NCBI GenBank assembly: GCA_038532285.1
Contig: JBCBAV010000002.1
Span: 2,679 to 66,678 of the forward strand
Reading direction: 5' to 3'
Source: Pseudomonadota bacterium
GTDB lineage: Bacteria; Pseudomonadota; Alphaproteobacteria; Rhodobacterales; Rhodobacteraceae
Length of the DNA: 64,000 nucleotides
Each line of letters opens with the position of its first letter. Positions within the stretch are counted from its first letter, which is position 1. Position numbers and translations under genes: made by a program. Shown piece by piece: positions 6,895 to 24,215 of this stretch. The notes under the pieces were generated by a model. That model was not told the origin of the DNA, searched no databases, and saw only the letters and a program-made list of their open reading frames with translations.

Positions 6895-6920
6895 ATGTTG
6901 TGGTGGCGCGTTTTGCGACC

Positions 6921-6961: not shown

Positions 6962-7006
6962 ATCGTACGCCGCGGTTAACGGGGCGTGCGGTGGTGGTGA
7001 TTGCGG

Positions 7007-7114
7007 GTTTTGATGAAAACGGGCCGGGTTTTGTACAAAACGCGGGCTGGTTTCGGGGCGGATTTGGCCCTGTTTTGGCGTTTTGTTCAAAATGGGGGCT
7101 GTTTTGTACAAAAC
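7007..7114. repeat. Array of four 14-bp AT-rich palindromes (GTTTTG-N2-CAAAAC), arranged as two 2-site modules
   Basis: gttttgatgaaaac 7007-7020; gttttgtacaaaac 7028-7041 (perfect palindrome); gttttgttcaaaat 7080-7093; gttttgtacaaaac 7101-7114 (perfect palindrome). Centre spacing is 21, 52 and 21 bp. It lies between two convergent gene ends. Confidence 0.8.
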
Positions 7115-7202
7115 GGCGCGGTGGTGCGCATTAACGGGGTGTTAGGGCTTTGCGTTTGTTAAGGATTGGGCGGGCACGTTTACGTTTCTTTGGGATTTGG
7201 GC

Positions 7203-9209: not shown

Positions 9210-9242
9210 TGGGTCCCCTTTTGCCGCCAGAGTATCCGCGTA

Positions 9243-9623
9243 TCAGTCGGTGTCGAGCACCTTGCGGGCGACGCGGAAGCATTCGAGTGCCTGGGGGACG
9301 CCGCAGTAGATGCCGATGACGTGGATGATGGCGCGGATTTCCTCGCGGCTGACGCCGTTGGTGACGGCGCCGCGGCAGTGGATTTCCCATTCGGTCATCT
9401 TGCCCAGCGCGCCGATCATGGCGAGGTTCATCATCGACCGCGTCTTGGCGTCGATGACGTCGTCGCCCCAGCCGAAGCCCCAGCACCAGGCGGTCATCGC
9501 CTCCTGGAACGGACGTGTGAAATCGTCGGCGGCGGCGAGGTTTTTTTCGACATAGGTGGCGCCGAGGGTGGATTTGCGCTGTTCGAGGCCTTTTAGGAAG
9601 AGGTCTTCGTCGAAGGTGGACAT
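9243..9623 (-). CDS. Carboxymuconolactone decarboxylase family protein (PcaC-like)
   Basis: 126 aa. ...TAWCWGFGWGDDVIDAKTRSMMNLAMIGALGK..EWEIHCRGAVTNGVSREEIRAIIHVIGIYCGVP is the typical CMD domain. Confidence 0.8.
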   Translation of the reverse strand: MSTFDEDLFLKGLEQRKSTLGATYVEKNLAAADDFTRPFQEAMTAWCWGFGWGDDVIDAKTRSMMNLAMIGALGKMTEWEIHCRGAVTNGVSREEIRAIIHVIGIYCGVPQALECFRVARKVLDTD

Positions 9624-9676
9624 GTTTTGGGGTTCCTTTTGGTTACTTTAGCCTGATCGGAATACTCTATGCGCGC

Positions 9677-11119
9677 TTAGCTAAGCCGGATCGCGACGTT
9701 CTTCGTCTGCACGTAGTTCCACAGGGCCTCGCGGCCCTTTTCGCGGCCGTAGCCGGATTTGCCGTAGCCGCCGAAGGGGGTTTCGACGCCGCCTGCGAAC
9801 CATTCGTTGACAAAGACCTGGCCCGCGCGGATCTGGCGGGCCCCTGACGTTGCGCGGTCGAGGGAGCGGGTGAAGACGCCGCCGACGAGGCCGTAGGGGG
9901 TGCCGTTGGCGATGCGGATCGCCTCGGCGTCGTCGGTGAAGCGCAGGACAGACAGGACGGGGCCAAAGACCTCTTCCTGCGCGATGGTCATGTCGGGGGT
10001 GACGCCCGTGAGCACCGTGGGTTCGAGGAACGCGCCGGGGTTGTTCAGGGGGTGGCCGCCGGTGACGATCTCGGCCCCTGCGGCGGCGGCATCGGCCACC
10101 ATGCCCGCGGCGCGGTCGCGTTGGGCGTGGCTGACCATGGACCCCATGGTGGGGCCAAATTCGGGTTGGTCGATGCCGGGCAGCACGGTGAGCGAGCGCG
10201 CGACGCCTGCGATGCGGTCAACGAGGGCGTCATGGATGCTGTCGTGGGCGATCACGCGGCTCATCGCGGAACAGACCTGGCCTGCGTTGAAATAGATGCC
10301 CCAGCGCACGTCGTTTTCGAACGCGTCGAGATCGGCGTCGTCATGCACGATGGCCGCGGATTTGCCGCCAAGCTCGAGCACGCAGGGGACCACGTTTTGT
10401 GCCGCTGCGGTGGCGATGGCGATGCCGGTGGGGACCGAGCCGGTGAAGACGATCTGGTTGACGTCCGAGTGCGCCGACAGGGCCGCCCCCGCCGCGTGCC
10501 CCAGACCACAGAGGATGTTCACAGCCCCCGGTGGCAGGCCGACATGTTCCGCGGCGTGGGCAAACCACGCGTTCGAGAGCGGCGTGAGTTCCGGCGTCTT
10601 GACCACGCAGGCGTTGCCGGTGGCGAGACCCGCCGAGAGAGAGCGGGCGGTCATCTCAACCGGGTAGTTCCACGGGATGATCTGGGCCGACACGCCGAAG
10701 GGTTCGTAATGCGTGAAGTCGAAATAGTCGCGACCCAGCGGGATGGAGCGGCCTTCGACGGTTTCGGCCTGGTTGCCGTAATATTCGAAGTAGCGGGCCG
10801 CACCGCGGATTTCGATCTGCGCCTCCCAGAGCGGTTTGCCCTGTTCCAGTGTCAGCACCTCGGCGATGTCGTCGATATGATCGAGCAGGTAGCGGCCCAT
10901 GGCCTGGACCATGCGGCCGCGTTCCACCGGTCTGAGATCGCTGAGCGCGCCCGAGGCGTGCACGCGTTTGGCGGCCTGTACGGCGCGGTCGATGTCGGTT
11001 GCATCGGCCAGCGCGTGTTCGGCGAGCTTTTGACCCGAGGCGGGGTTGATGATGTCGATCCGTCCCGCGCCGCCGTTCTGCCACGCGCCGTCGATGTAGT
11101 TTTGCCAGTAGGGTTTCAT
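9677..11119 (-). CDS. NAD(P)-dependent aldehyde dehydrogenase
   Basis: 480 aa with VLELGGKSAAIV and FNAGQVCSA (catalytic Cys) motifs. Confidence 0.9.
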   Translation of the reverse strand: MKPYWQNYIDGAWQNGGAGRIDIINPASGQKLAEHALADATDIDRAVQAAKRVHASGALSDLRPVERGRMVQAMGRYLLDHIDDIAEVLTLEQGKPLWEAQIEIRGAARYFEYYGNQAETVEGRSIPLGRDYFDFTHYEPFGVSAQIIPWNYPVEMTARSLSAGLATGNACVVKTPELTPLSNAWFAHAAEHVGLPPGAVNILCGLGHAAGAALSAHSDVNQIVFTGSVPTGIAIATAAAQNVVPCVLELGGKSAAIVHDDADLDAFENDVRWGIYFNAGQVCSAMSRVIAHDSIHDALVDRIAGVARSLTVLPGIDQPEFGPTMGSMVSHAQRDRAAGMVADAAAAGAEIVTGGHPLNNPGAFLEPTVLTGVTPDMTIAQEEVFGPVLSVLRFTDDAEAIRIANGTPYGLVGGVFTRSLDRATSGARQIRAGQVFVNEWFAGGVETPFGGYGKSGYGREKGREALWNYVQTKNVAIRLS

Positions 11120-11189
11120 TGCGTGGTCCTTTTTTGCTGGTGACGGACTGTTTTTTATCGGCGCACTGGGGGCCAGCCCCCAGACCCCC

Positions 11190-11212
11190 GCGGTTTATCT
11201 GGCGAAATGAAG
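11190..11212 (+). repeat. Dispersed intergenic repeat, copy C (core only: gcggtttatctggcgaaatgaag)
   Basis: Shares the 23-nt core with copies A, B and D, with one mismatch to A/B. Confidence 0.75.
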
Positions 11213-11242
11213 CGGGATGGGGGGGGGATTTTGGTGGCGGAT

Positions 11243-11283
11243 CGGCCCTCCGGGGGCGGTTTATTTGGCGAAATGAAGATTGG
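11243..11283 (+). repeat. Dispersed intergenic repeat, copy B
   Basis: 41/41 identical to 6921-6961. The upstream flank (ttggtggcgg) also resembles the flank of copy A (tgtggtggcgcg). Confidence 0.85.
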
Positions 11284-11320
11284 GGCGTTTGGATTTGCGA
11301 GTGTCGGCATCGGGGGGCGC

Positions 11321-12067
11321 TTAGGCAGGTGGTTTCAGGCGGTGGGCGTGGAGGTGATCGTAGTGCGGTTTCATGCGGCGGTGCACCTGTTTGACGCGGG
11401 CGGGCGCGTCGGCGAGTTCGACATAGCGGCGCGTTTGCGGCGTCAGGCCGGTGGATAAGGCGAGGTTGGCGTGGAACGACCCGCCGTCCCACCAGCTGTG
11501 GGCCGCGGGGTCGCCGCCGGGGGTCCAGGTGAGGGCCTCGGGGAGGAAGGGGATGTCGACGGCTTTGCAGAACGCGCGGGTCATGTCCGCGGGCGCCTCG
11601 AGCAGGTCGTCGCTGTCGATCACGGGGGCTGGTGATCCGTTCAGGGCCGTCAGCAGGTCAAAGAGCGCGCGCTGTTCGGGAAAGCCGACCTCCAGTTCGT
11701 CGAAATCGGGCCATTTGTCGTAGATCGACGTGATGGTTTTGGCGGGGTCGCGGATCAGGAAGGCGTGGGTGAACTGCGCGAGGAAGTCCGGCGTCCAGAT
11801 GTGGTGGATGTAGTGGGGAAAATCCTTGAGGAAGACAGGGCCGGTTTGGGCGCGGGTCTGAATCTCGGCCCAGACGCTGTCGAGGGTGAGGCCCGGTGTG
11901 GTCTTGTCGCCCGGTTGAAAGCGGGGCCAGAGCGGGTCTTCGCCCTGGTACCACGCCTCGCCAAAGGGTTCGTGCAGGCAGTCGAGGTCGCCGCGCTGGC
12001 GCATCATCCATTCGAAGGCGGTGGAGGTGGAGCGGGGGACGGCCCAGAGGGCGATTATTCTATTCAT
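11321..12067 (-). CDS. P-loop sulfotransferase-like protein (function uncertain)
   Basis: Track ORF 11321..12310. The upstream 81 codons are Arg/Ser/Pro-rich shadow sequence, so I prefer the ATG at 12067 (MNRIIALWAVPRSTSTAFEWMMRQRG...). The PRSTST loop resembles the PAPS/5'-phosphosulfate-binding loop of sulfotransferase-fold proteins. Overlaps the upstream gene by 8 nt. Confidence 0.45.
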   Translation of the reverse strand: MNRIIALWAVPRSTSTAFEWMMRQRGDLDCLHEPFGEAWYQGEDPLWPRFQPGDKTTPGLTLDSVWAEIQTRAQTGPVFLKDFPHYIHHIWTPDFLAQFTHAFLIRDPAKTITSIYDKWPDFDELEVGFPEQRALFDLLTALNGSPAPVIDSDDLLEAPADMTRAFCKAVDIPFLPEALTWTPGGDPAAHSWWDGGSFHANLALSTGLTPQTRRYVELADAPARVKQVHRRMKPHYDHLHAHRLKPPA

Positions 12068-12896
12068 TGGCGGGCGCGGGGCGGAGGGTTTCGAGGAGCG
12101 CGCCCTGCGGCGTCGTGGGGGCGATGCCGAGGTCGGCCATGATGCGCCAGTAGAGCGCGATGTCGTGGCCGATGACGGGTTTGCCCAGCCGCGCCTCGAG
12201 ATCGCGGGCCAGGTGCAGGGGGCGTTGTGGCAGTCCGCCCGGGCCGGTGCGGAAGTTGCACATGCCGTTGATGAGGTACGCGTCGGCGTGCGGGGCCTGT
12301 TCGGCGACATAGTCGAAGCTGCGCTGTGCCAGATCGCCGTCGAAGATCCAGCGGCGGGCGTTGACCGCGTCCTGATCGGGGAACCAGCCCTGATCGACGA
12401 AATTGCCGGCCCAGAGGACGTCGAAGCCAGCCTCGCGCAGGAAGGCTGCGGTGCCCTGCCACCAGTCGGGCCAGTGGTAGGCGGCGTTGAGGGCCAGTTT
12501 TTCGACGCCCAAGGCGCGCAGGGCCTCGACCATGGCGTAGCCGGCCATGTGGAACCGGGTTTGGTATTTGTCCGAAAGGTCGGCGCAGTGCTGGCGGATC
12601 CCCTCGACGCCGAGGCCGCTGGCGTGGACCCAGTTGGAGCCGACCTGTCCGCACACGTCGACGCCGTTGCGGGACATGTTGTGGACGAAATCCTCCATCA
12701 TGCCGAAATTGGCGCGGCGCTGGTCGAGGCCGTGGGCGTAGTCGGGGACGTGCAGCATCCAGCCGTGCACGCCGACGGTGTCGGGGCACATGCGCAAAAA
12801 GTCCGAAGGGCCGGCGTCGTAGTCGAAGGGCGGACAGGTGAAGCCGACCTGATGCGGGAAGAGCTTGTGTTCGGGGTGCCAGTCGCGGGGCATCAT
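12060..12896 (-). CDS. Asp/Glu/hydantoin racemase superfamily protein (maleate isomerase / arylmalonate decarboxylase-like)
   Basis: Start MMPRDW... at 12896 overlaps the Rieske gene stop (12893-12895). 278 aa with two candidate catalytic Cys contexts (GVDVCGQVGSN and INGMCNFR). Confidence 0.55.
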   Translation of the reverse strand: MMPRDWHPEHKLFPHQVGFTCPPFDYDAGPSDFLRMCPDTVGVHGWMLHVPDYAHGLDQRRANFGMMEDFVHNMSRNGVDVCGQVGSNWVHASGLGVEGIRQHCADLSDKYQTRFHMAGYAMVEALRALGVEKLALNAAYHWPDWWQGTAAFLREAGFDVLWAGNFVDQGWFPDQDAVNARRWIFDGDLAQRSFDYVAEQAPHADAYLINGMCNFRTGPGGLPQRPLHLARDLEARLGKPVIGHDIALYWRIMADLGIAPTTPQGALLETLRPAPANE

Positions 12897-13972
12897 GGTC
12901 CGTCGATCCCGTCGCGCATCCATCGCTGCAGGTGCATGACGGGGTGTTCGGAGTTCACGCCGCCGTTGGGGTCGACGACCAGCGGGCCCGGGACATAGCC
13001 GCGGGAGTTGAGGCCGCGCTGGACGCTTTCGACGAGGTGGATGTCTTCTTCGACCGTGGTGTCGCGGTCCTGGCGGGCGAGTGTGCGGATTTTGGGGTCG
13101 TCCACGCCATGAGCGGTGTACCAGCCGCGCCAGACCACCACGTGGGAGGCGTCGACCACGCGCCAGTGGTAGGTGTTGAGCACGTTGCCGGGGTAGACCT
13201 GGAACGAGAACATGGGCCAGAGGAACCAGCTGGAATATTCGTCGAAGTGATCGAAGCCCGAGTGGATGTCGTAGGTCATGTCCTCGAGGCTTTGGCATTC
13301 GGTGGTGTGGCGCAGGCAGTGTCCCTGGGGCTGGATGTCGTAGGTTTCGGGTTTGACCACGCCGCTGGCAAAGGTCGGGTGGCAGAGCGCGCAGTGGTAG
13401 CATTCGGAGTAGTTTTCGACCGAGACTTTCCAGTTGCAGCGTTCGGGGATGTCGACCCATTCGAGGGGTCTCAGATCGGCCCAGTTGGGCACCCATTCGG
13501 CCAGTTCGGCGCGGGCGTCGGGGAACCAGTCGTCCATGGGGGCGGCATCCGGGTCGAGGTTCACGAAGAGGAAGCCGAGGAATTCTTCGGAGCGGACTTC
13601 GGTGAGGCAGATGGTGGATTTGTCGAAACCTTCGACCGCCTTGATGTTGGGGCCTGCGCGCAGTTGGCCGGTCAGCTCGTAGGTCCAGGCGTGGTAGGGG
13701 CAGACGACCACCCGTGTGGTCCCTGCCCCGCTGACCAGCTGGTGCGCGCGGTGCTGGCAGACGTTGTAGAACACGCGGATCACATCGTCGCGACCACGGA
13801 TGGCGAACAGGCTTTCGCCCGCGATGTCGAAGGTGGTGTAGGCGCCTGGTTCGGCCAGGTCCGAGACGTGGCAGCCAAACTGCCAGGTTTTGGCCAGAAG
13901 GCCCTGTTTTTCAACCTCGAACACTTGGCTGTCGGTGTAGTAGCGCGCGGGCAACGAGCGGATGGGCGCCAT
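12893..13972 (-). CDS. Rieske [2Fe-2S] non-heme-iron oxygenase, alpha-subunit type (GbcA/Stc2-like N-demethylase class)
   Basis: Start MAPIRSLPARYYTD... at 13972. Rieske motif CQHRAHQL-x-CPYHAW. Mononuclear iron motif ENYSECYHCALCH. 359 aa. Confidence 0.8.
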   Translation of the reverse strand: MAPIRSLPARYYTDSQVFEVEKQGLLAKTWQFGCHVSDLAEPGAYTTFDIAGESLFAIRGRDDVIRVFYNVCQHRAHQLVSGAGTTRVVVCPYHAWTYELTGQLRAGPNIKAVEGFDKSTICLTEVRSEEFLGFLFVNLDPDAAPMDDWFPDARAELAEWVPNWADLRPLEWVDIPERCNWKVSVENYSECYHCALCHPTFASGVVKPETYDIQPQGHCLRHTTECQSLEDMTYDIHSGFDHFDEYSSWFLWPMFSFQVYPGNVLNTYHWRVVDASHVVVWRGWYTAHGVDDPKIRTLARQDRDTTVEEDIHLVESVQRGLNSRGYVPGPLVVDPNGGVNSEHPVMHLQRWMRDGIDGP

Positions 13973-13973
13973 G

Positions 13974-14858
13974 TCAGGGGTCCTGATGGTAGAGGCCAAG
14001 CTGGTGGCGGCGTTTGTGGAAGGTGGCGACGCGGTCGGGGATTTCGTCGCTGGCGACGGCCACGACGAAGGACAAAAGGGTCTCCAACAGTGCGATGATG
14101 CTGACCGAGGATGGAAAGAACTGCGGCGTGTCAACGGACACGGTAAAGCCGTGGGCGACGTTGTGCAGGATCGGGCTGGCGAGGCTGTCGGACAGCGACA
14201 CGATGGTCAGGCCCTGTTCGCGGGCAATCTGCACGGCTTCGACCACCTCGGCCCGGTAGGGCTTGCAGGTGATGGCGATCAGCACGTCGCGCCCGTCGGC
14301 CCACGCGAGATCATCCACCGGGGTGGAGCCTGCGCGCGGGATGGCGTGGATCTGTTTCATGCCGGTGGAGGCGAGATAGGTGAAGTTGCGGGCGTTGGAA
14401 TTGTTGATGCCCACGCCCAGCACAAAGACATTGCGGGCGTTCCAGATCGCGATAGCTGCGGCTTCGAGCGCGTCGGGGGTGACGCTGGCAAAGGTTTCCT
14501 CGACATTGCGAAGCGTGTCGCTGACCATGTCGGCAAAGAGGCCACCCAGATCACCCGATTTGCGGATGTCCTGCAGCCAGCGGGCGCGGTCGGGAAAGTC
14601 GGTCTCGCCCCGGCGGATGGCGTCGCGGAAGGGGGTGCGGAAATCCTCGTACCCGTCAAAGCCCACCTGGCGGGCCATGCGCACCACGGTGTTGGGTTTC
14701 ACGCCCGAGGCCTGCGCAATCTCGCGCACGGTCGACACGCCCACGTCGCGCGGGTTTTCCAGCACGTAGGCCGCGGCCTTGCGCGCCTCGGGCGTGAGGG
14801 CGGGCAGTTCGGCAGCGAGCCGTTCGAGAATCGCGTCTGATACATTTGTCCCATTCAT
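13974..14858 (-). CDS. MurR/RpiR family transcriptional regulator (HTH + SIS domain)
   Basis: 294 aa with an N-terminal HTH (AAAYVLENPRDVGVSTVREIAQASGVKPNTVVRMARQVGFDGY) and a C-terminal SIS fold. The stop lies 1 nt before the Rieske start. Divergent from the gene at 14924. Confidence 0.85.
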   Translation of the reverse strand: MNGTNVSDAILERLAAELPALTPEARKAAAYVLENPRDVGVSTVREIAQASGVKPNTVVRMARQVGFDGYEDFRTPFRDAIRRGETDFPDRARWLQDIRKSGDLGGLFADMVSDTLRNVEETFASVTPDALEAAAIAIWNARNVFVLGVGINNSNARNFTYLASTGMKQIHAIPRAGSTPVDDLAWADGRDVLIAITCKPYRAEVVEAVQIAREQGLTIVSLSDSLASPILHNVAHGFTVSVDTPQFFPSSVSIIALLETLLSFVVAVASDEIPDRVATFHKRRHQLGLYHQDP

Positions 14859-14923
14859 GATTGACGATGGTATTTTTGTCCGCTTAGCCTGTCGAGTGAA
14901 AAACGACTCGAAGGAGTGGCCTG

Positions 14924-17512
14924 ATGTCGGATCTTCCCAGCCATGCGCGTGTGGTGATTGTAGGTGGTGGCGTCATGGGGGTTGGCCTGGCCTATCACCT
15001 GGGTCACGAGGGGTGGGGGCCGGAGACGGTTCTGCTGGAAAAGGCGGAGCTGACCAGCGGCAGCACCTGGCACGCGGCGGGGCAGATCACGCATTCCACG
15101 TCCAGCTTTGGCTTGGGCAAGTGCGTGGACTACAACATTGATCTTTATAGCCGTTTGCTGGAGGCCGAGACCGGGCAGCCGGTGACATGGCACGGCTGCG
15201 GGTCGTTCCGGCTGGCCTATACGACGGACGAAATGGACTGGCTGCGGCACACGCTGTCGGTGGGCCGCGCGCTGGGGTTCAATATCGAGCTGGTGGGGCC
15301 CGAGCAGGTCGCGACGCTGCATCCGTTTTACAACCTTGATGGCGTGTTGGGCGCGCTGCATACGCCCGACGATGGGCACGTGGACCCGACCAATGTGACC
15401 ATGGCGATGGCGGCGGGCGCGCGCCAGAAAGGCGTGCGGATCGTGCGGCAGTGCCGGGCGACAAACATCACGCAGCTGCCCAGTGGCGAGTGGCAGGTCG
15501 AGACCGAGCGCGGCACGATCACCTGCGAACACGTGGTGAATGCGGGCGGCACCTATGCAAGGCAGATGGGCGAATGGTCGGGGCTGCAACTGCCCATGAC
15601 GTCGATGACGCACCATTATTTCGTGACCGAGCCGGTGCCGGAATTTGCCGATCTGGAGACCGAGTTGCCGGTGATCCGGGATGATCGCAAAGTCTCGGGC
15701 TACATCCGGATGGAGCAGAAGCGCGGGCTGATCGGGATTTACGAGAAGGAGAACCCGAACTCCGTCTGGCACGACCATTGCCCGTGGGACTACGAAAACT
15801 GGCTGTTTGACGCGGATTACGACCGGGTGATGCCGTATCTGGAGGAAAGCCTGAACCGGATGCCGATCTTTGCCGAGTTGGGCATTCAGCGCGAGGTGCA
15901 TGGCGCCATTTCGCATCCGCCCGATGGCAACCCGCTGATTGGCCCGGCGCCCGGTGTGCGCAATTACTGGTGCTGTTGCGGCACGCAGATCGGGATTGGG
16001 TGGGGCCCGGGGTTGAGCCGCGAGTTGGCGCGGTGGATGGTGCACGGGGCGGCGGATATCTCGATGCGCGAGTATGACCCGCGCCGGTTTGGGGCCTATG
16101 CCACCAAGGACTGGCAGGTGGTGAAGGCGGAAGAGGATTATTGCCTGCGCCACGAGATCCCGTTTCCGCATTTCAACCGGCTGGCGGGGCGGCCGATCAA
16201 GCCGTCGCCGCTGCACGATGTGCTGGCGGCGAAGGGCGCGGTGCATGAGGAAGTCTACGGCTTCGAGCGGCCGCGGTTCTTTGCGCGCGGGATAGACCAG
16301 CGGGATCACTACGGGTTCAACCGGACGCCGGTGGACGAGATGGTGGCGCAGGAGGTGGCTGCCGTACGGGAACGTGTGGGGATCATCGACGTCACTGCCT
16401 TCACCAAGGTGCTGGTCGAGGGGCCGGATGCCTATGCCCTGCTCGACCGGCTGACGGCGAACCGGATGCCGCAAAAGGTGGGGTCGATCACGCTGACGCA
16501 CATGCTGAACCGGCGGGGGCGGATCGAGGTGGAGACGACGATCGTGAACCTTGGCCCCGCCCCGGCCTCCGCCCCGGCCCCCGAGCCGGGGCCTCGCAGC
16601 CAAGAGGCCCCGGATCAAGTCCGGGGCGGGCTCCCGGGTCAAGTCCGGGGCGGGCTCCCGGGTCAAGCCCGGGGCGGGCTCCCGGATCAGGTCCGGGGCG
16701 GGCGGTACTACCTCGTCTGTGCGGCGTTTTTCGAACAGCGGCTCTTGGATCATCTCGCGCAGCATCGCGATGGCGCGGATGTGACGGTGACCGCGGTGTC
16801 CGAGGCCTGGTCGGCGCTGGCTATCAACGGGCCAAGGGCGCGGGATGTGCTGGGGGCGTGTACCGCGGCGAACCTGTCCAATGCCGGGTTCCGCTGGCTG
16901 TTGGCGCAGGAGATTGACGTCGCGGGGCACCGCATCTGGGCGATGCGGATGTCGTATGCGGGCGAGTTGGGGTGGGAGTTGCACATGCCCAACGCCGCCT
17001 GCCGCGATGTCTATGATGCGCTGTGGGCTGCGGGTGTTCCGCATGGAATTGCCGACTACGGCAGCTTTGCCATGAACGCGCTGCGCATGGAAAAGGGGTT
17101 CAAGGGCGCAGGCGAGTTGACCAACGAGGTGACCCTGGCCGAGGCGGACGTGCTGCGCTTTGCCCGGCGGGACAAGGTGTTTTTGGGGTCCGACAAGACC
17201 TTCAACGAGGATGTGCCGTGGGTGTGTGCCTATCTCGAGATCACGCCCGATGGCGTGGCCGATGGCCATGGCGGCGAGGCGGTGATGATGGGCGGCGTGG
17301 TCGTGGGATCGACGGCGTCGGTGGCCTATGGGCCGAGCGTGGGCAAGATCCTTGCCTTTGCCTATGTCACGCCTGACGCGGCTGTGCCCGGCACGGCGCT
17401 GGAGGTCGTGATCCACGGGGTGCCGCGGGCGGCGCGTGTGCTGGGCGAGCCGGCCTATGATCCGCAGAGCCTGCTGCCGCGCACCGATGGCGCGCGGGAG
17501 GCGGCGGAATGA
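14924..17512 (+). CDS. FAD-dependent oxidoreductase fused to a GcvT-type aminomethyltransferase domain (dimethylglycine/sarcosine dehydrogenase family), carrying an in-frame repeat insertion
   Basis: 862 aa. N-terminal VVIVGGGVMGVGLAYHL dinucleotide fold. The C-terminal half has GcvT-like segments (GIIDVTAFTKVLVEG, YAGELGWELH). See the repeat at 16609-16704. Confidence 0.85.
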   Translation: MSDLPSHARVVIVGGGVMGVGLAYHLGHEGWGPETVLLEKAELTSGSTWHAAGQITHSTSSFGLGKCVDYNIDLYSRLLEAETGQPVTWHGCGSFRLAYTTDEMDWLRHTLSVGRALGFNIELVGPEQVATLHPFYNLDGVLGALHTPDDGHVDPTNVTMAMAAGARQKGVRIVRQCRATNITQLPSGEWQVETERGTITCEHVVNAGGTYARQMGEWSGLQLPMTSMTHHYFVTEPVPEFADLETELPVIRDDRKVSGYIRMEQKRGLIGIYEKENPNSVWHDHCPWDYENWLFDADYDRVMPYLEESLNRMPIFAELGIQREVHGAISHPPDGNPLIGPAPGVRNYWCCCGTQIGIGWGPGLSRELARWMVHGAADISMREYDPRRFGAYATKDWQVVKAEEDYCLRHEIPFPHFNRLAGRPIKPSPLHDVLAAKGAVHEEVYGFERPRFFARGIDQRDHYGFNRTPVDEMVAQEVAAVRERVGIIDVTAFTKVLVEGPDAYALLDRLTANRMPQKVGSITLTHMLNRRGRIEVETTIVNLGPAPASAPAPEPGPRSQEAPDQVRGGLPGQVRGGLPGQARGGLPDQVRGGRYYLVCAAFFEQRLLDHLAQHRDGADVTVTAVSEAWSALAINGPRARDVLGACTAANLSNAGFRWLLAQEIDVAGHRIWAMRMSYAGELGWELHMPNAACRDVYDALWAAGVPHGIADYGSFAMNALRMEKGFKGAGELTNEVTLAEADVLRFARRDKVFLGSDKTFNEDVPWVCAYLEITPDGVADGHGGEAVMMGGVVVGSTASVAYGPSVGKILAFAYVTPDAAVPGTALEVVIHGVPRAARVLGEPAYDPQSLLPRTDGAREAAE
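16609..16704 (+). repeat. 4 x 24-bp tandem repeat inside the coding sequence (unit cccggRtcaRgYccggggcgggcK)
   Basis: Units at 16609, 16633, 16657 and 16681 translate as PDQVRGGL/PGQVRGGL/PGQARGGL/PDQVRGG. Each unit contains a ccgg..N..ccgg inverted repeat. Same family as the 23-bp array at 27926-28017. Confidence 0.9.
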
Positions 17513-18591
17513 GCATTCCCGAGACGATGCGCGCGATGGTGACGGTGGGGCACGGGGGGCTGGACCAGATGGTCTGGCACGAAGATTGGCCGGTGCCGGT
17601 GCCTGCGGCGGGCGAGGTGTTGATCCGCGTGGGCGCGTGCGGGTTGAACAACACGGACGTGAACACGCGGTCGGGCTGGTACTCCAAGGCGGTGACCGCG
17701 CCCACCACCGGCGACGGGTTCGCCACGGTAAGCGAAGAGGACCCGACATGGGGGGCCGCGCCCATCGCGTTTCCGCGCATTCAGGGGGCGGATGTGTGCG
17801 GGGAGATCGTGGCGGTGGGCAGCGGTGTGGACGCCGCGCGCGTGGGCCAGCGGGTGATCACCGACAACTGGCTGCGCGATCCGGACGATCCCGGTGACAT
17901 GACCAAGACGGGCTATTTCGGGTCCGAGCGGGATGGCGGCTTTGCCGAGTACACCACGATCCCCAGCGTGAACGCGGTGGCGATTTCTTCGCCGTTGAGT
18001 GACGCGGAGTTGGCGACGTTTTCGTGTTCGTATTCCACCGCCGAAGGGATGCTGACCCGCGCGGCGGTGACCGGGGCCGATACCGTGCTGGTCACGGGCG
18101 CGTCGGGTGGCGTTGGCGGGGCGCTGGTGCAACTGGCCAAGCGGCGTGGGGCGCGGGTGATTGCGATGGCGTCGGAGGTCAAGCACGCCGATGTGGCGGC
18201 GTTTGGGCCTGACAGGATGCTGCCGCGTGCACCGGACGATCTGCGCGCCGCTTTGGGCGATGAGAAGGTCACCGTGGTTGCCGACATCGTCGGCGGGCCC
18301 TACTGGCCGACGCTCATCGACGTGCTGGAACGCGGCGGGCGCTATACCTGTTCGGGGGCGATTGCCGGGCCGATGGTGGAGCTGGATTTGCGCACGTTTT
18401 ACCTGCGTGATCTGACCTTTACCGGGTCGACCGTGATCCCGCCGGAGGTAACGCGGAACCTTGTGGCTTACATCGAGGCGGGGGCTGTGCGCCCTGCCCT
18501 CGCCGCGACCTATCCGTTGAAGGACCTGCACGCCGCCCAGGCCGCGTTCATCGCCAAGGAACATACCGGCAATATCGTGGTGGTGCCGTGA
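17509..18591 (+). CDS. Zinc-type (MDR) alcohol dehydrogenase / quinone oxidoreductase family protein
   Basis: 360 aa. ATGA overlap with the upstream stop. GEVLIRVGACGLNNTD and VLVTGASGGVGGALVQLAK Rossmann segment. Confidence 0.8.
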   Translation: MSIPETMRAMVTVGHGGLDQMVWHEDWPVPVPAAGEVLIRVGACGLNNTDVNTRSGWYSKAVTAPTTGDGFATVSEEDPTWGAAPIAFPRIQGADVCGEIVAVGSGVDAARVGQRVITDNWLRDPDDPGDMTKTGYFGSERDGGFAEYTTIPSVNAVAISSPLSDAELATFSCSYSTAEGMLTRAAVTGADTVLVTGASGGVGGALVQLAKRRGARVIAMASEVKHADVAAFGPDRMLPRAPDDLRAALGDEKVTVVADIVGGPYWPTLIDVLERGGRYTCSGAIAGPMVELDLRTFYLRDLTFTGSTVIPPEVTRNLVAYIEAGAVRPALAATYPLKDLHAAQAAFIAKEHTGNIVVVP

Positions 18592-19190
18592 CACGGGCGG
18601 CCTTTCAGGCGCTCTATGATGCAGCGGGGCGGCTGGTGGCGGAGACCCCTGCCCTGCGCGATTTCGGGACGTGGCCCGCGATGCCTGCCTTTCGCAAGCG
18701 CAAGCCCACGGTCATCCCGGCGATACAGCTGATCACGGCGCGGCCCGATCCGCCGTTGTGTTCACCTGCGCAAAGTGCCTTTCTGGCGGCTTTGCGTGCC
18801 GCCGCCCCGTTTGCCCGGTGGTATCGCAGCTACACGCGCGCGCAGGTGGGGCGGGATTTTCTGGACCGCTATGGCTGGTTCGAACTGCTTGGCCCGTCGG
18901 GCCATTTCCGCAGCGACGCGGCGCGCGCCTATATCGCCTATTGGGGCGACGGGTTGGTGTACCCGGATCACGCGCACGCGGCGGAAGAGATCTACTATGT
19001 CGTGGCGGGCGGCGCAGATTTTGCCAGCGACGGGGTGCCGTCGGCGACGCTCGCCCCCGGAGACACGCGGCTGCACGGGGCGTGGCAGAGCCACGCGATG
19101 ACCACCACGACCAGCGATATCCTGACGCTGGTCCTGTGGCGGGGCGCGGGGCTGGCGGGCAAGCCGGTCATGCTGGAGGCGCGCCCGTGA
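18588..19190 (+). CDS. dddQ: DddQ-like cupin (annotated family: dimethylsulfoniopropionate lyase DddQ)
   Basis: 200 aa with GTG start in a GTGA overlap. RYGWFELLGPSGHF, YIAYWGDGLVYPDHAHAAEEIYYVVAGG and TRLHGAWQSHAM match my recollection of roseobacter DddQ, including the spacing of the H-x-H-x3-E-x-Y ... H metal ligands. Confidence 0.6.
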   Translation: MTRAAFQALYDAAGRLVAETPALRDFGTWPAMPAFRKRKPTVIPAIQLITARPDPPLCSPAQSAFLAALRAAAPFARWYRSYTRAQVGRDFLDRYGWFELLGPSGHFRSDAARAYIAYWGDGLVYPDHAHAAEEIYYVVAGGADFASDGVPSATLAPGDTRLHGAWQSHAMTTTTSDILTLVLWRGAGLAGKPVMLEARP

Positions 19191-20299
19191 AGATCACCCG
19201 CATCCGCATCTACCAGACCGGGCTGCCTTATGTGGGCGGGGCCTATGTCTGGGGCGCGGGCAATGCGATCGAGGTGGCACAGGCGAGCGTCGTGGTGATC
19301 GACACCGATGCGGGCCTGCAAGGCTGTGGTGAGTTCACGCCGTGCGGTGAGAATTACATGGTCGCCCATTCCGAGGGGGTCGCGGCGCTGGCGCGGCTGG
19401 TGGCCCCCAAGCTGATCGGGGCGGACCCGCGACAGGTGGGCATGATCGAGCAGATTTTGGACCACGCGGTGCAGGGCCACGGCTATGCCAAGGCGCCGTT
19501 TGATGCGGCGTGCTGGGACATTCTGGGCCAGGCGGTGGGCCAGCCGGTGTGGATGCTTCTGGGCGGCAAGCTGACCGATGGCGCGCCGATGTACCGGGTC
19601 GCGCCGCAGAAGGCGACCGATGAGACGCTGGCCGAAATGCAGCGCTATCGCGCGCAGGGTTACCGCCAGTTCCAGATCAAGGTGGGCGGCGATTGGCGCG
19701 GGGACATTGACCGCATTCATGCCGGTGTCGGCCTGTTGGAACGTGGTGAAAAGGCGATGGCGGATGCCAATCAGGGCTGGCGCGTGGATGACGCGATCCG
19801 GGTGGCGCGGGCGACCCGCGATCTGGATTACATCCTCGAACAGCCGTGCCGCACCTACGAGGAATGCCAGCAGGTGCGGCGGGTGGCCGAACAGCCGCTG
19901 AAGCTGGATGAGTGCCTGACCGGCATGGCCGCGGCGCAGCGCATCGTGGCGGACCGGGGGGCGGAGGTCTGTTGTCTGAAGCTGTCGAACCTCGGCGGGC
20001 TGACCAAGGCGCGGCGGGTGCGGGATTTTCTGGTGGAAAACCGCATTCCGGTGGTGGCGGAGGACACGTGGGGCGGTGAGATCACCACCGCCGCCGTGGC
20101 GCATTTTGCGGCCTCGACGCCCGCGGATTATCTGCAGAACACCACCGATCTGATGAACTACAACACCCGGTCGACCGGTATCGGCGGGCCCGAGGCGCGG
20201 GGTGGCAAGCTATACGCCAGTGATGCGCCCGGGTTGGGGGTTGCGCCGGATTTCGACAGCCTTGGCGCGCCGGTGGCAGCGTATGGAGGTGCGACATGA
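19187..20299 (+). CDS. Mandelate racemase/muconate lactonizing enzyme family protein (enolase superfamily), paralog 1
   Basis: Track ORF 18671..20299. The part upstream of 19187 overlaps dddQ in another frame, and the GTG at 19187 sits in a GTGA overlap. VKITRIRIY..., FQIKVGG, ADANQGW, LEQP, KLDE, CLKLSNLGG. Confidence 0.85.
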   Translation: MKITRIRIYQTGLPYVGGAYVWGAGNAIEVAQASVVVIDTDAGLQGCGEFTPCGENYMVAHSEGVAALARLVAPKLIGADPRQVGMIEQILDHAVQGHGYAKAPFDAACWDILGQAVGQPVWMLLGGKLTDGAPMYRVAPQKATDETLAEMQRYRAQGYRQFQIKVGGDWRGDIDRIHAGVGLLERGEKAMADANQGWRVDDAIRVARATRDLDYILEQPCRTYEECQQVRRVAEQPLKLDECLTGMAAAQRIVADRGAEVCCLKLSNLGGLTKARRVRDFLVENRIPVVAEDTWGGEITTAAVAHFAASTPADYLQNTTDLMNYNTRSTGIGGPEARGGKLYASDAPGLGVAPDFDSLGAPVAAYGGAT

Positions 20300-20700
20300 C
20301 ACCGGTTCCGACAGAGATTGCGGCGGTTTTCGATGCGGCCCCTGAGGCGGTGCGGGCGCGGCTTTATGGCCTGCGGGCCATGGCCTTTGCGGCGGCGGAG
20401 GCGACAGGCACTCTACCGCTGGAGGAAAGCCTGAAGTGGGGGCAGCCCGCGTTTCGCCCCAAGGCGCCGCGGACGGGAACGACCCTGCGGCTGGGCTGGC
20501 GGGCGGAGGCCTGCACGCTGTTTGTGCCGTGCCAGACGGATTTGCTGGACCAGTATCGGGCGCGGTTTGCCGGCCTCTTTGCCTTTGACGGCGACCGGGC
20601 GGTGCATGTGCCCGTGGCCCCCGGCCCGGACGAGGCAGCACTCCAGCAGATGATGGCCATGGCGCTGACCTATCACCGCGACAAGAGGGGCCGCGCATGA
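20296..20700 (+). CDS. DUF1801 (YdhG-like) domain protein
   Basis: 134 aa with ATGA overlaps at both ends. LKWGQPAF... segment typical of DUF1801. Confidence 0.5.
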   Translation: MTPVPTEIAAVFDAAPEAVRARLYGLRAMAFAAAEATGTLPLEESLKWGQPAFRPKAPRTGTTLRLGWRAEACTLFVPCQTDLLDQYRARFAGLFAFDGDRAVHVPVAPGPDEAALQQMMAMALTYHRDKRGRA

Positions 20701-21803
20701 AGATCACGGGGCTGACCGTCTACCAGGTCGATCTGCCGCTGGAGCATCCCTATTGGCTGTCGGGCGGGCGGCTGAAATTCGAATGTCTTGATGCGACGCT
20801 GGTGAAGCTGGAGACCGATGCCGGGATCACCGGCTGGGGTGAAGGCACGCCGTGGGGGCACACCTATGTGCCGGCGCATGGGCCGGGGATACGTGCGGGG
20901 ATCGAGACGATGGCGGGCTTTGTCCTCGGACTTGATCCGCGGCGTGTACTGGAGGTCGAGCGGGCGATGGACACCGCCCTGCCCGGTCACCTGTATGCCA
21001 AGAGCCCGATCGACATGGCGTGCTGGGACATTGCGGGGCAGGACGCGGGCCTGCCTATTGCCGACCTGATGGGCGGTGGGTCACGCACGCCGCGGCCCAT
21101 TGCGTCGTCAGTGGGCGCCAAGACGGTAGAAGAGACGCGCGAGGTGATCGCGCGGCACCGCGCGCGCGGCTACATCGCGCATTCGGTCAAGATCGGCGGC
21201 GACGTGGCCCTTGACATCGCCCGCATCCGCGATGTGGAGGCGTTGCGCGCGCCGGGTGACATCATGCTTTATGACGTGAACCGCGGCTGGACGCGGCAGC
21301 AGGCGTTGCGGGTGATGCGGGCGGTCGAGGATCTGCAAGTGATCGTGGAACAGCCCTGCGAGACGCTGGATGACATTGCCGCCATCGCCCCGCGCCACGC
21401 GACCCCGGTGTCGGTGGACGAAACCCTCGTCACCCTGCAGGACGCCACGCGCATCGCGCGCGATGGGCTGGCCGAGGTGTTCGGCATCAAGCTGAACCGC
21501 GTGGGCGGGCTGACCAAGGCGGCGCGGATGCGGGACGTCGCACTCGCCCACGGCATCGACATGTTCGTGATGGCCACCGGCGGCAGCGTGCTGGCCGACG
21601 CTGAGGCGCTGCATCTGGCGGCGACCATTCCCGATGCCCATTGCCACGCCGTGTGGGCCTGTCAGGACATGCTGACCGCGGACATCGCGGGCGGGCGTGG
21701 GCCGCGCAACATCGCGGGCCACCTGCACCTGCCCGAGGCACCGGGCCTGGGCGTGCACCCGGACGAAGACGCGCTTGGCGCACCAGTGGCGGCGTATAGA
21801 TGA
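20697..21803 (+). CDS. Mandelate racemase/muconate lactonizing enzyme family protein, paralog 2
   Basis: 368 aa. MKITGLTVYQVDLPL..., HSVKIGG, YDVNRGW, VEQP, SVDE, GIKLNRVGG. Confidence 0.85.
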   Translation: MKITGLTVYQVDLPLEHPYWLSGGRLKFECLDATLVKLETDAGITGWGEGTPWGHTYVPAHGPGIRAGIETMAGFVLGLDPRRVLEVERAMDTALPGHLYAKSPIDMACWDIAGQDAGLPIADLMGGGSRTPRPIASSVGAKTVEETREVIARHRARGYIAHSVKIGGDVALDIARIRDVEALRAPGDIMLYDVNRGWTRQQALRVMRAVEDLQVIVEQPCETLDDIAAIAPRHATPVSVDETLVTLQDATRIARDGLAEVFGIKLNRVGGLTKAARMRDVALAHGIDMFVMATGGSVLADAEALHLAATIPDAHCHAVWACQDMLTADIAGGRGPRNIAGHLHLPEAPGLGVHPDEDALGAPVAAYR

Positions 21804-22903
21804 AGATCAACAAGCTCACCCTATGGTCCGTGGACCTGACCAGCCACGCCACCTACTACATGGCCGAGGGCAAGACCTGTGCCACCGTGACCACGCATAT
21901 CCTGCGGCTCGACACCGATACCGGCCTGAGTGGCTGGGGCGAGGTGTGCCCGATCCCGCATTACCTGCCGGATTTCGCGGGCGGTATCCCGGCAGCAGTG
22001 ACCGAGATGGCGCCGCAGATCCTTGGGGTGAGCCCGTTGGGGGTGGACGCGCCGATGCGCAAGCTGGACGGGTTCCTGATCGGGCACCGGGCGGCGAAAT
22101 CGCTGGTGGACATGGCGCTGTGGGATCTGTTTGGCCGCGCGGTGGACCTGCCGCTTTATGCGCTGCTGGGCGGGCGGACGCGGGCGGACATGCCGCTCTA
22201 TCATTCCATCACCTGCGTTGATCCGGACGAGATGGCGCGCATGGCGCGGGAGGCCTATGGCACCGGCATCCGGCAGTTTCAGGCCAAGCTGGGGGCGGAT
22301 GCCAGCTGGGAAGCCGATGCCGCGCGCCTGATCAAGGTACGCGAGGCGGTGGGGCACGGCCCGCTGGTCTATGGCGACTGGAATTGCGGCGCGACCAAGC
22401 TGCAGGCAACGCGCACGGGGCGCGCGGTCGCGCATCTCGACATCATGCTCGAACAGCCCTGCAAGACGCTGGAGGATTGCGCGGCGGTGCGTGCCGCCAC
22501 CGGCCTGCCGATGAAGATCGACGAATGCGCGCATGATCTGGCCAGCCTGCAACAGGCGCGCGATCTGGGGTGTCTGGATGCCGTCGCCCTCAAACTGTCG
22601 AAATTTGGCGGTCTGTCGGCGATGTGCCGGGCGCGCGACCTGACGGTGCATCTGGGTGCGGAGATTTGCGCCGAATGCACGTGGGGGTCGGACATCGTGA
22701 CCGCCGCCAGCCTGCACTTTGCCGCCTCCACCCCGCAGGGCAGCCTGCTGAACACCTGCGACCTGTCGGGCTATGTCGGCCCGCGCGTGGCCCCCGATTG
22801 CCCCACCCGCCAAAACGGGCGCATTGCCCCACCCGAAGGTCCGGGCCTGGGCATCACACCGGATGCAGATGTCCTTGGCCCTGCCCTTCTCGAAATAGAT
22901 TAG
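21800..22903 (+). CDS. Mandelate racemase/muconate lactonizing enzyme family protein, paralog 3
   Basis: 367 aa. MKINKLTLWSVDL..., FQAKLGA, GDWNCG, LEQP, KIDE, ALKLSKFGG. Confidence 0.85.
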   Translation: MKINKLTLWSVDLTSHATYYMAEGKTCATVTTHILRLDTDTGLSGWGEVCPIPHYLPDFAGGIPAAVTEMAPQILGVSPLGVDAPMRKLDGFLIGHRAAKSLVDMALWDLFGRAVDLPLYALLGGRTRADMPLYHSITCVDPDEMARMAREAYGTGIRQFQAKLGADASWEADAARLIKVREAVGHGPLVYGDWNCGATKLQATRTGRAVAHLDIMLEQPCKTLEDCAAVRAATGLPMKIDECAHDLASLQQARDLGCLDAVALKLSKFGGLSAMCRARDLTVHLGAEICAECTWGSDIVTAASLHFAASTPQGSLLNTCDLSGYVGPRVAPDCPTRQNGRIAPPEGPGLGITPDADVLGPALLEID

Positions 22904-22904
22904 A

Positions 22905-22943
22905 CTTCACTTTGCCAGATAAACCGCCGCCGGAGGCTCCCCC
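22905..22943 (-). repeat. Dispersed intergenic repeat, copy D (inverted); supplies the Shine-Dalgarno of the next gene
   Basis: The reverse complement ggagcctccggcggcggtttatctggcaaagtgaag matches the core of copies A-C with 2 mismatches to C. The GGAGG at 22932-22936, 7 nt before the ATG at 22944, lies inside the element. Confidence 0.75.
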
Positions 22944-24215
22944 ATGAACAGAATGCACACACAGTCGGACTGGATCGCGCGGGCGCAAGAGGTGCTGCCT
23001 GCCGCGGGCTTTGGCAATTTCGATCCCGGCATCATCATCGCGCGGGGCGAAGGATCCCGCGTCTGGGACGCGGACGGCGCGGAATATGTCGATTACCTGA
23101 TCGGCTCGGGCCCGATGCTGCTGGGCCATGGGCATCCGGAGGTGATGGAGGCGGTGCTGGAACAGTTGCCGCGCGGCATGACGTTTTTTGCCAACAACGC
23201 CAAGGGTATCGAACTGGCCGAGGCGATCTGCGACGCGGTGCCGTGTTGCGAACAGGTGCGCTTTGTCGCCTCGGGCGGTGAAGCGGACATGTACGCCATG
23301 CGGCTGGCGCGCGCCTATACCGGGCGCGATAAAATCCTGAAGTTCGAGGGCGGCTATCACGGGATGTGTGCCGAGGCGCAGATGAGCCTTGCGCCCGCGC
23401 GGCGGGTGAATTTTCCGCAGGCGGTGCCGGACAGCGCGGGCATCCCGCAGGCGGTGGCCGACCAGATGCTGATCGCGCCGTTCAACGATCTGGAGGCCGT
23501 GGCGGCCCTGCTGGCCGAACACGACGATATCGCCGCCATCATCGCCGAGCCGTTGCAGCGGATCATCCCGGCAGAGCCGGGGTTCCTGCAGGGGCTGCGC
23601 GATCTGTGTGATCGGCACAGGGTGCTGTTGATCTTTGACGAGATCGTCACCGGGTTTCGGCTGGCCTATGGCGGGGCGCAGGAACGCTATGGCGTCACCC
23701 CGGACATCTGCACGCTGGGCAAGATCATCGGCGGGGGTTTTCCGCTGGCGGCCCTTGGGGCCAGTGCCGAGATCATGGCGCATTTCGACAAGGGGCGCGT
23801 GGGCGCGGACAAGTGGCTGATGCAGCTCGGGACGCTGTCGGGCAATCCAGTGGCGTCTGTTGCGGGGCTGAAGACGATGGAGGTGCTGGCGCGCGACGGG
23901 GCTTATGACCGGCTGCGCGACATTGGCGGGACCTTGCAAGGCATGCTGCGCGACGCGCTGGGGTACGCGGGCATTGCGCACCAGATCGTGGGCGATGAGA
24001 CGTTGTTTGACGTCTATTTCACCGACACCCCCTGCCGCGATTACCGCAGTGCCGCCCATGACGATCCGCAGCGCAACGTGACGTTCAACGCTGTGCTGCG
24101 GCAGCACGGCGTGTTCAAATCGCCGGGCAAGCTGTATCCGTCGCTGGCGATCACCGAGGATGATCTGGCGCTGACGCGGGATGCGATCCGCGCGGCGGTG
24201 CAGGCGATCTGCTGA
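22944..24215 (+). CDS. Class III (PLP) aminotransferase, glutamate-1-semialdehyde aminomutase-like
   Basis: 423 aa. ASGGEADMYAMRLAR, FDEIVTGFR, TLGKIIGGGFP (PLP lysine). Confidence 0.85.
   Translation: MNRMHTQSDWIARAQEVLPAAGFGNFDPGIIIARGEGSRVWDADGAEYVDYLIGSGPMLLGHGHPEVMEAVLEQLPRGMTFFANNAKGIELAEAICDAVPCCEQVRFVASGGEADMYAMRLARAYTGRDKILKFEGGYHGMCAEAQMSLAPARRVNFPQAVPDSAGIPQAVADQMLIAPFNDLEAVAALLAEHDDIAAIIAEPLQRIIPAEPGFLQGLRDLCDRHRVLLIFDEIVTGFRLAYGGAQERYGVTPDICTLGKIIGGGFPLAALGASAEIMAHFDKGRVGADKWLMQLGTLSGNPVASVAGLKTMEVLARDGAYDRLRDIGGTLQGMLRDALGYAGIAHQIVGDETLFDVYFTDTPCRDYRSAAHDDPQRNVTFNAVLRQHGVFKSPGKLYPSLAITEDDLALTRDAIRAAVQAIC

Follow-up and report, generated by a model that had tools for sequence, protein, structure and literature searches.

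The 64,000-nt stretch considered here (contig JBCBAV010000002.1 of a Rhodobacteraceae bacterium; hereafter the window, whose positions serve as coordinates throughout) harbors a conserved divergent gene cluster at 9243-24215, which extends from a carboxymuconolactone-decarboxylase-family (CMD) protein on the left to a class-III aminotransferase on the right and includes a gene for a DddQ-family cupin. The favored interpretation, to which a probability of roughly 0.6 is assigned, is that this cluster constitutes a catabolic operon for a betaine-type amine in which DddQ acts as an accessory and fast-evolving lyase. In this operon, probably controlled by an RpiR-family regulator, the substrate would be a carboxylated N-methylated or quaternary amine, i.e. 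a betaine-type osmolyte, and the invariant core would comprise the CMD protein, an aldehyde dehydrogenase, a Rieske oxygenase, a dimethylglycine dehydrogenase (DMGDH)-like protein, an MDR-superfamily oxidoreductase, at least one MR/MLE enzyme and an aminotransferase resembling glutamate-1-semialdehyde aminomutase (GSAM). A context of N-methylated or quaternary amine catabolism had already been proposed by a first-pass annotation made from the sequence alone, and the enzyme set fits this proposal.

The region is an ordinary copy of the known roseobacter dddQ cluster. A scan with one genome per species yielded 143 relatives, the best 80 dddQ loci of which, all from different species, were retained and searched with the window proteins by tblastn. 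Beside dddQ, an MR/MLE gene occurs in 66 of the 80 loci, the MDR gene in 65, the aminotransferase gene in 64, the RpiR gene in 60, the DMGDH-like gene in 57 and the Rieske gene in 54; in all, about 65 loci share these neighbors. In addition, a CMD homolog is present in 57 related loci (identity up to 93%), and the aldehyde dehydrogenase gene adjoins the cluster in 26. The commonest layout (18 loci) has the order DMGDH, MDR, dddQ, MR/MLE paralogs 1 to 3 (MR1, MR2 and MR3) and aminotransferase, to which the window adds a single rare open reading frame (ORF), resembling DUF1801, between MR1 and MR2, and it therefore represents a standard dddQ locus. The coupling of the plus-strand genes is evident from start-stop overlaps (ATGA at 17509, 20296, 20697 and 21800; GTGA at 18588 and 19187), followed by the aminotransferase ATG at 22944, 40 nt past the stop at 22903. 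The minus-strand genes are likewise tightly packed, with a 1-nt spacing, one ATGA overlap between the start of the arylmalonate-decarboxylase-like (Amdase-like) gene and the Rieske stop, and one 8-nt overlap. The first-pass annotation had listed all of these plus-strand junctions together with the 40-nt gap, and the gene families it assigned to both divergent operons are borne out by Pfam. Its plus-strand gene list was correct for the genes it named but omitted the MDR gene and the DUF1801-like ORF; similarly, it recognized the genes of the divergent operon down to 11321, but the conserved cluster reaches further, to the aldehyde dehydrogenase and CMD genes.

The same annotation had suggested that published roseobacter dddQ loci have similar neighbors, which is indeed the case. 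The loci of Ruegeria pomeroyi DSS-3 (SPO1596), Roseovarius nubinhibens ISM (dddQ1/dddQ2; L047 in the present set) and Ruegeria lacuscaerulensis ITI-1157 represent the same operon and have in common with the window the genes for the DMGDH-like protein, the MDR protein known as MDR028, DddQ, MR/MLE paralogs and aminotransferase as well as the divergent RpiR and Rieske genes; moreover, the nearest relatives (69-75% identity) of the crystallized R. lacuscaerulensis DddQ are encoded at the same place in the operon. Todd et al. 2012 described dddQ of R. pomeroyi and R. nubinhibens as probably co-transcribed with an MDR028-type gene (PMC3338564). Subsequently, Lei, Tawfik and colleagues reported in 2017 the conserved MR-like and DMGDH neighbors of dddQ and proposed that DddQ participates in breaking down proline betaine or hydroxyproline betaine, its activity on dimethylsulfoniopropionate (DMSP) being promiscuous (bioRxiv 10.1101/161257). 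Since the neighborhood and the betaine link were published in 2012 and 2017, the idea drawn from the context is not new; new here are the optional status of DddQ, its fast evolution, the CntA-like character of the Rieske oxygenase and the MR/MLE classes. Among the searchable literature after 2017, no paper naming the substrate of the operon was found. The window differs from the published loci in that its DddQ belongs to a divergent lineage (at most 57% identity, except for one sister metagenome-assembled genome, MAG), in the extra DUF1801-like ORF and the pair of Amdase-like and sulfotransferase-like genes, and in an insertion unique to its DMGDH-like gene.

Within this operon, DddQ is an optional and fast-evolving insert. 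A second search, anchored on the MDR gene instead of dddQ, retrieved operon copies devoid of dddQ: 12 of the 14 complete metagenomic copies (contigs running from DMGDH to aminotransferase) lack it within 10 kb, two carry it, and it is also missing from the operon on the chromosome of Loktanella sp. IMCC34160. These DddQ-less operons are otherwise orthologous, with 64-89% identity to the window proteins. A minimal version without dddQ resides on plasmid NZ_CP025807.1 of Sulfitobacter sp. SK012 (L084, locus positions 4633-14465) and consists of CMD, aldehyde dehydrogenase, Rieske and RpiR genes and, divergently, of DMGDH, MDR, a single MR/MLE and aminotransferase genes. This 92.8-kb plasmid is conjugative (MOBP, MPF_T), and the pathway is therefore mobile; the operon adjoins sulfatase-like genes and a tripartite tricarboxylate transporter there. 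Where dddQ is present, its copy number and place vary, with 0-3 copies per operon overall and two positions, either after the MDR gene or before the last MR/MLE gene. Furthermore, over 743 locus pairs the median pairwise identity of DddQ amounts to 48.5%, as compared to 70.5-82.9% for its partners MDR, DMGDH, aminotransferase, RpiR and Rieske protein, and DddQ ranks last in conservation among the six proteins in 653 of these pairs.

These observations bear directly on the view, held by the first-pass annotation and by Lei et al., that DddQ performs an obligatory step in catabolism of the proline- or hydroxyproline-betaine type and that DMSP cleavage is pure promiscuity. The GTGA overlaps that flank the window's dddQ on either side, the location of about 65 of 80 dddQ loci within the operon, the resemblance of the MR/MLE paralogs to HpbD and c3LHypD and the prior publication of the hypothesis speak for it, whereas most sampled operon copies manage without dddQ, its number and position vary, it evolves much faster than each partner, and the known hpb pathways need neither a lyase nor an aminotransferase (PMC3950512, in which the word 'aminotransferase' never appears). 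Because dddQ is usually accompanied by these neighbors, whereas the neighbors often occur without dddQ, a necessary DddQ step becomes less likely; an obligatory role is accordingly judged improbable, and the first-pass proposal of a cupin acting on a pathway intermediate loses support.

As regards the protein itself, the window DddQ scores 61.8 bits against PF16867 (cut-off 27) and aligns over residues 9-195 with the R. lacuscaerulensis DddQ structures 5jso and 4la2 (E = 3e-51). Its closest relative is that of the sister MAG (95% identity), followed by proteins with 52-57% identity. The metal-binding and catalytic set is retained as Tyr125, His128, His130, Glu134, Tyr136, His169 and Trp184, which match R. 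lacuscaerulensis Tyr120, His123, His125, Glu129, Tyr131, His163 and Trp178 (own count from the 4la2 alignment), and these columns are invariant in an alignment of 20 sequences. The window DddQ is thus predicted to be catalytically intact and translationally coupled to its neighbors.

With the residues of the characterized enzyme all conserved, DddQ might alternatively be a genuine lyase of DMSP (or of dimethylsulfoxonium propionate, DMSOP, or another sulfonium compound) that merely rides in an unrelated amine operon by way of its promoter, which would render the neighbors uninformative. According to PMC3338564 and PMC12992908, Todd et al. 2011 are credited with showing the release of dimethyl sulfide (DMS) from DMSP by DddQ, and the joint loss of dddP, dddQ and dddW abolishes DMSP lyase activity; in a 2026 study, DddQ still figures as a DMSP lyase (PMC12992908). 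In the same direction, the presence or absence of dddQ is independent of the operon, and about 15 of the 80 dddQ loci fall outside it. On the contrary, the tabulated catalytic efficiency for DMSP is only 32-46 M-1 s-1 (kcat/KM of 46.5 and 32 M-1 s-1) at a KM above 20 mM (PMC11497337), in line with the low efficiency stated in the first-pass annotation. Acrylate-handling genes are missing from the vicinity and the dddQ-linked MDR gene fails to relieve sensitivity to acrylate (PMC3338564), while dddQ is transcribed at a low level that acrylate does not induce and that does not depend on DmdR, i.e. it is not regulated together with DMSP genes (PMC12992908). In addition, two annotated dddQ loci outside the operon again possess nitrogen-related neighbors. 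Taken together, a dedicated sulfonium lyase in a foreign operon appears unlikely.

Regarding these outlying loci, dddQ of one Roseovarius MAG (L042) is surrounded by genes for two Amt-family transporters, a BKACE enzyme, a CMD protein and a GST-like protein (Pfam), and a second Roseovarius MAG (L068) shows two Amt genes as well (tblastn). In a further locus (L048), a DAO oxidoreductase, a class-III aminotransferase and a glutamine-synthetase-like protein adjoin dddQ. A general association of dddQ with Amt transporters was discarded, being limited to 8 loci, mostly from Roseovarius.

The Rieske oxygenase bears on the chemistry of the amine-catabolic operon favored here. Its best solved structural relative is the carnitine monooxygenase CntA of Acinetobacter baumannii (6y8j; 225.6 bits over the full length), as opposed to 113 bits for Stc2 (3vca), which aligns with the N-terminal part only (residues 6-219), and 154.3 bits for the GbcA model (cut-off 670), likewise confined to the N-terminal half. 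Membership in the GbcA/Stc2 type (group Vb), with which the first-pass annotation had linked it, is thus not supported. The motif Y-S-E-C-Y-H-C-A-L-C-H aligns with Y203, E205, H208 and H213 of CntA, as does D323, so that Rieske ligands, iron ligands and the equivalents of the bridging Glu205 and of Tyr203 are kept. The tyrosine two residues before the bridging glutamate touches the quaternary ammonium through a pi-cation interaction and is the defining residue of group Va (PMC7948474). Judged by these residues, the enzyme is a CntA-like oxygenase of the quaternary-amine group Va. The substrate pocket is altered, with Y295R, Y315D, F319T, N270Q and F258Y (the Y225 position is ambiguous), and because Tyr295, Tyr315 and Phe319 are replaced by Arg, Asp and Thr, the substrate is not carnitine itself. 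The window protein also differs from CntA in lacking an adjoining CntB reductase and in its other operon partners.

This resemblance raises the alternative that a carnitine- or gamma-butyrobetaine-like trimethylammonium compound undergoes CntA-type C-N cleavage to trimethylamine and an aldehyde rather than stepwise N-demethylation. CntA is the best full-length structural relative with the group-Va tyrosine retained, an aldehyde dehydrogenase gene is conserved beside the Rieske gene, a paralogous Rieske-aldehyde dehydrogenase-MDR-MR/MLE module exists on Leisingera plasmids, and the BKACE gene lies near dddQ in L042. The three exchanged pocket residues and the missing CntB-like reductase speak against this scheme, however, and the characterized MR/MLE relatives act on proline-type substrates (PMC3950512). 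Moreover, the DMGDH-like demethylase and genes of the formaldehyde-activating (GFA) family fit demethylation with formaldehyde release better. GFA genes occur in 13 related loci, adjoining the Rieske gene in Thalassococcus (L081) and standing in one gene string with it in L082, and thereby hint at the release of formaldehyde. The alternative of a carnitine- or gamma-butyrobetaine-like substrate is regarded as unlikely, although for the oxygenase step taken by itself either demethylation or C-N cleavage may apply.

The MR/MLE paralogs also speak for the betaine-type reading. All three retain the equivalents of K164, K266, D194, E219 and D242 of pdHpbD, i.e. the catalytic Lys/Lys pair and the Asp/Glu/Asp metal set. 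MR1 matches PDB entries 2rdx (675 bits) and 4mgg (353 bits), MR2 matches 3eez (727 bits) and MR3 matches 4mgg (242 bits). MR1 bears the ED/TD signature found in 4mgg, while MR2 shows MA/WA in 35 of 35 orthologs and MR3 shows E[CD]/CD in 39 of 39. With the 4mgg-signature reference, MR1 has 45% identity as well as the ED and Thr-Asp positions in common, the identity of MR3 amounts to 37%, and the genomic context differs. Against the NCBIfam model HProlDhtase (cut-off 500), MR1 reaches 410.3 bits and MR2 and MR3 reach 321.4 and 296.1 bits. In HpbD, the substrate-binding Trp312 lies near the quaternary ammonium (PMC3950512); the only Trp in the corresponding region of 4e8g is residue 321 in reconstructed numbering and was thus equated with it. 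MR2 (35 of 35 orthologs) retains this Trp, as does a 2qdd-type fourth paralog of other genomes, and MR1 has Thr and MR3 has Cys in its place. At the position of HpbD Asp293, MR2 carries Met and the other two paralogs carry Glu, so that no paralog combines both residues. These signatures suggest two active-site classes, an HpbD-like Trp class and a class resembling 3-hydroxyproline dehydratase. Individual operons contain between 1 and 4 paralogs, and MR3 precedes the aminotransferase in most layouts. Three successive enolase-superfamily steps, as envisaged in the first-pass annotation, are unlikely given this varying number and the two classes; instead, the paralogs would represent parallel entry enzymes. 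For PDB entries 3EEZ, 2RDX and 2QDD, among others, literature searches returned unrelated papers only.

A comparison with the hpb clusters of Pelagibaca bermudensis, Paracoccus denitrificans and Rhodobacter sphaeroides reveals both kinship and distance. These clusters, like the window, combine an MR/MLE 2-epimerase featuring Lys164/Lys266 and Asp/Glu/Asp with Rieske attack on a quaternary amine, after which a flavin demethylase and an aldehyde dehydrogenase act (PMC3950512). In contrast, the window MR/MLE proteins are only 31-36% identical to pdHpbD, the Rieske oxygenase falls into group Va instead of the Stc2/HpbB type, the demethylase is DMGDH-like, and the MDR protein, GSAM-like aminotransferase, CMD protein and RpiR regulator set the window's cluster apart, in which neither reductase nor D-amino-acid-oxidase genes were seen.

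The remaining enzymes are consistent with amine degradation. The DMGDH-like protein displays the DAO, FAO_M, GCV_T and GCV_T_C architecture of the dimethylglycine dehydrogenase family and matches no equivalog model. In the window, an in-frame insertion of 47 aa (16550-16704) splits its GCV_T domain; a Pro/Ala-rich stretch forms its first part, and four tandem repeats of 24 nt each (16609-16704), encoding roughly DQVRGGLP four times, form the second. The insertion is missing from all orthologs examined, including that of the sister MAG (L001), which in its other cluster proteins shares 92-99% identity with the window, and the repeat unit does not recur within the window. SPO1592 of R. pomeroyi was enriched under carbon limitation, and this fits a catabolic role; given its annotation and its numbering beside SPO1593, we infer that this gene is the ortholog of the DMGDH-like gene. 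The MDR protein has its best PDB match in 4j6f, a structure of unassigned function, and contains the GASGGVG cofactor motif but no GHE motif. MDR and MR/MLE genes are also paired in the Leisingera module and in Acinetobacter baumannii, where the ORFs resemble the series TetR-MDR-MR/MLE-MFS (the TetR and MFS labels rest on N-terminal sequences rather than Pfam scans), which suggests a reusable module. The aminotransferase scores 376.9 bits against PRK00062 (NCBIfam cut-off 398) and 311 bits against GSAM (PDB 2cfb).

The region between the RpiR and DMGDH-like genes is conserved as well. Alignment of 59 distinct regions gave the consensus GATTGACGA-TGGTACAnnTGT....TTAgCcTGTCgAG...CGACTC, in which TTGACGA is followed by the near-palindrome TGGTACAnnTGT in the spacer, TTAGCC and, within the DMGDH-like gene's leader, a short inverted repeat, GTCGAG...CGACTC; some loci carry a second half-site copy upstream. 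These motifs probably correspond to the promoter and the operator for RpiR. A consensus scan for promoters and terminators gave no more sites than in shuffled sequence.

In summary, the following chemistry may be envisaged. The CntA-like Rieske oxygenase would attack the carbon next to the quaternary nitrogen, the DMGDH-like protein would serve as a folate-linked demethylase, and the MR/MLE enzymes, akin to HpbD and c3LHypD, would abstract an alpha-proton, leading to either epimerization or dehydration. The extra paralogs would most likely open parallel entries for stereoisomers or related compounds, with the quaternary betaine handled by one class and the demethylated hydroxy-amino acid by the other. 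DddQ, in turn, most likely contributes a side or entry reaction, namely a beta-elimination on an onium-carboxylate analog, and its weak cleavage of DMSP would stem from a promiscuous or related activity without being a step that the pathway requires. In which direction and order these steps run is, like the substrate class, what we infer from the enzyme set; among 3-hydroxyproline betaine, beta-alanine betaine, homoserine betaine or the head group of diacylglyceryl hydroxymethyltrimethyl-beta-alanine (DGTA), and carnitine analogs, the computation discriminates none.

Several points weigh against this interpretation. RpiR/SIS regulators are an unusual type for betaine clusters. None of the cluster proteins attains an NCBIfam equivalog cut-off, the step assignments therefore all being made by family resemblance. 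The conserved cluster is devoid of a dedicated transporter, and no CntB-type reductase is present among the genes identified in 9243-24215 or in the DddQ-less clusters L081, L082 and L084, all three of which have the aldehyde dehydrogenase annotated. The lack of DddQ in the metagenomic copies pertains to 10 kb around a small sample of 14 complete operons, and those genomes may carry a copy elsewhere. The DMS release and triple-loss results mentioned above imply that DMSP could be a real substrate of DddQ.

A more specific version of the amine-catabolic reading can be offered only tentatively. The operon, with or without dddQ, would then represent a complete pathway for an abundant marine quaternary amine other than proline betaine, 4-hydroxyproline betaine and carnitine, because it combines a CntA-like oxygenase with an Arg/Asp/Thr pocket, a GSAM-like aminotransferase and an MDR reductase; DddQ would be a recently recruited onium lyase for a sulfonium or beta-ammonio analog.

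The features of the cluster are compiled in Table 1.

Table 1. Genes and control region of the conserved cluster, in window coordinates.
Feature	Position	Strand	Domain evidence
PcaC-like CMD protein, 126 aa	9243..9623	-	Pfam CMD
Aldehyde dehydrogenase, 480 aa	9677..11119	-	Pfam Aldedh, 503 bits
Sulfotransferase-like protein (accessory)	11321..12067	-	Pfam Sulfotransfer_5, 60.6 bits
Arylmalonate-decarboxylase / Asp-Glu-racemase-fold protein (accessory)	12060..12896	-	Pfam Amdase, 30.4 bits
Rieske non-heme-iron oxygenase, alpha subunit, CntA-like	12893..13972	-	Pfam Rieske, Ring_hydroxyl_A
RpiR/MurR-family regulator	13974..14858	-	Pfam HTH_6, SIS
Divergent control region with conserved promoter-like and palindromic motif	14859..14923		Alignment
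DMGDH-like FAD/folate N-methyl oxidoreductase, 862 aa	14924..17512	+	Pfam DAO, FAO_M, GCV_T, GCV_T_C
MDR-superfamily NAD(P)-dependent oxidoreductase ('MDR028' of Todd et al. 2012)	17509..18591	+	Pfam ADH_N, ADH_zinc_N
DddQ-family cupin, 200 aa, GTG start	18588..19190	+	Pfam DMSP_lyase (PF16867)
MR/MLE paralog 1 (MR1)	19187..20299	+	Pfam MR_MLE_N, MR_MLE_C
DUF1801-like small ORF (rare accessory)	20296..20700	+	Pfam DUF1801, E = 6e-4, below cut-off
MR/MLE paralog 2 (MR2), betaine-epimerase-like class	20697..21803	+	Pfam MR_MLE_N, MR_MLE_C
MR/MLE paralog 3 (MR3)	21800..22903	+	Pfam MR_MLE_N, MR_MLE_C
Class-III aminotransferase, GSAM-like subgroup	22944..24215	+	Pfam Aminotran_3

The CMD protein scores 114.6 bits against the NCBIfam PcaC model (cut-off 155.7), and no NCBIfam equivalog was passed by the aldehyde dehydrogenase. 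Three further genes are accessory: the Amdase-like gene accompanies dddQ in 20 of the 80 loci, the sulfotransferase-like gene in 18, nearly always paired with the former, and the DUF1801-like ORF in 3, its homologs (50-99% identity) being restricted to L001, L003, L015, L087 and L089. A 201-nt gap (11120-11320) separates the sulfotransferase-like and aldehyde dehydrogenase genes, the counterparts of which overlap in Thalassococcus (L081).

Directly beside the cluster, 537-9209 encodes a tartrate dehydrogenase, which passes its equivalog cut-off (576 bits versus 470), a peptide/opine-type ABC transporter made up of SBP_bac_5, two permeases and a fused ATPase, and a CocE/NonD-family hydrolase. 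These upstream genes were rejected as cluster parts, since they are not conserved with the cluster (homologs of the transporter occur with it in TARA contig L108 only), and the same applies to the downstream aldolase II and UPF0261 genes. On a larger scale, the G+C content is about 0.62-0.68 over the first 36 kb of the window and about 0.57-0.59 over approximately 36000-62000, which may constitute an island or compositionally distinct segment; a gene caller based on G+C at third codon positions (GC3) and tuned to the high-GC part reported zero genes past 33 kb.

In general, dddQ serves as a marker of DMS production in ocean metagenomes. If DddQ is an optional passenger in an amine operon, dddQ counts overstate the potential for DMSP cleavage, and should DddQ prove to be a recruited onium lyase, its DMS release would be a by-product of nitrogen-osmolyte metabolism. 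What the cross-genome comparison adds is that the pathway is independent of DddQ. If the amine-catabolic interpretation holds true, the operon, which is widespread in roseobacters, would mark the turnover of a nitrogen osmolyte.

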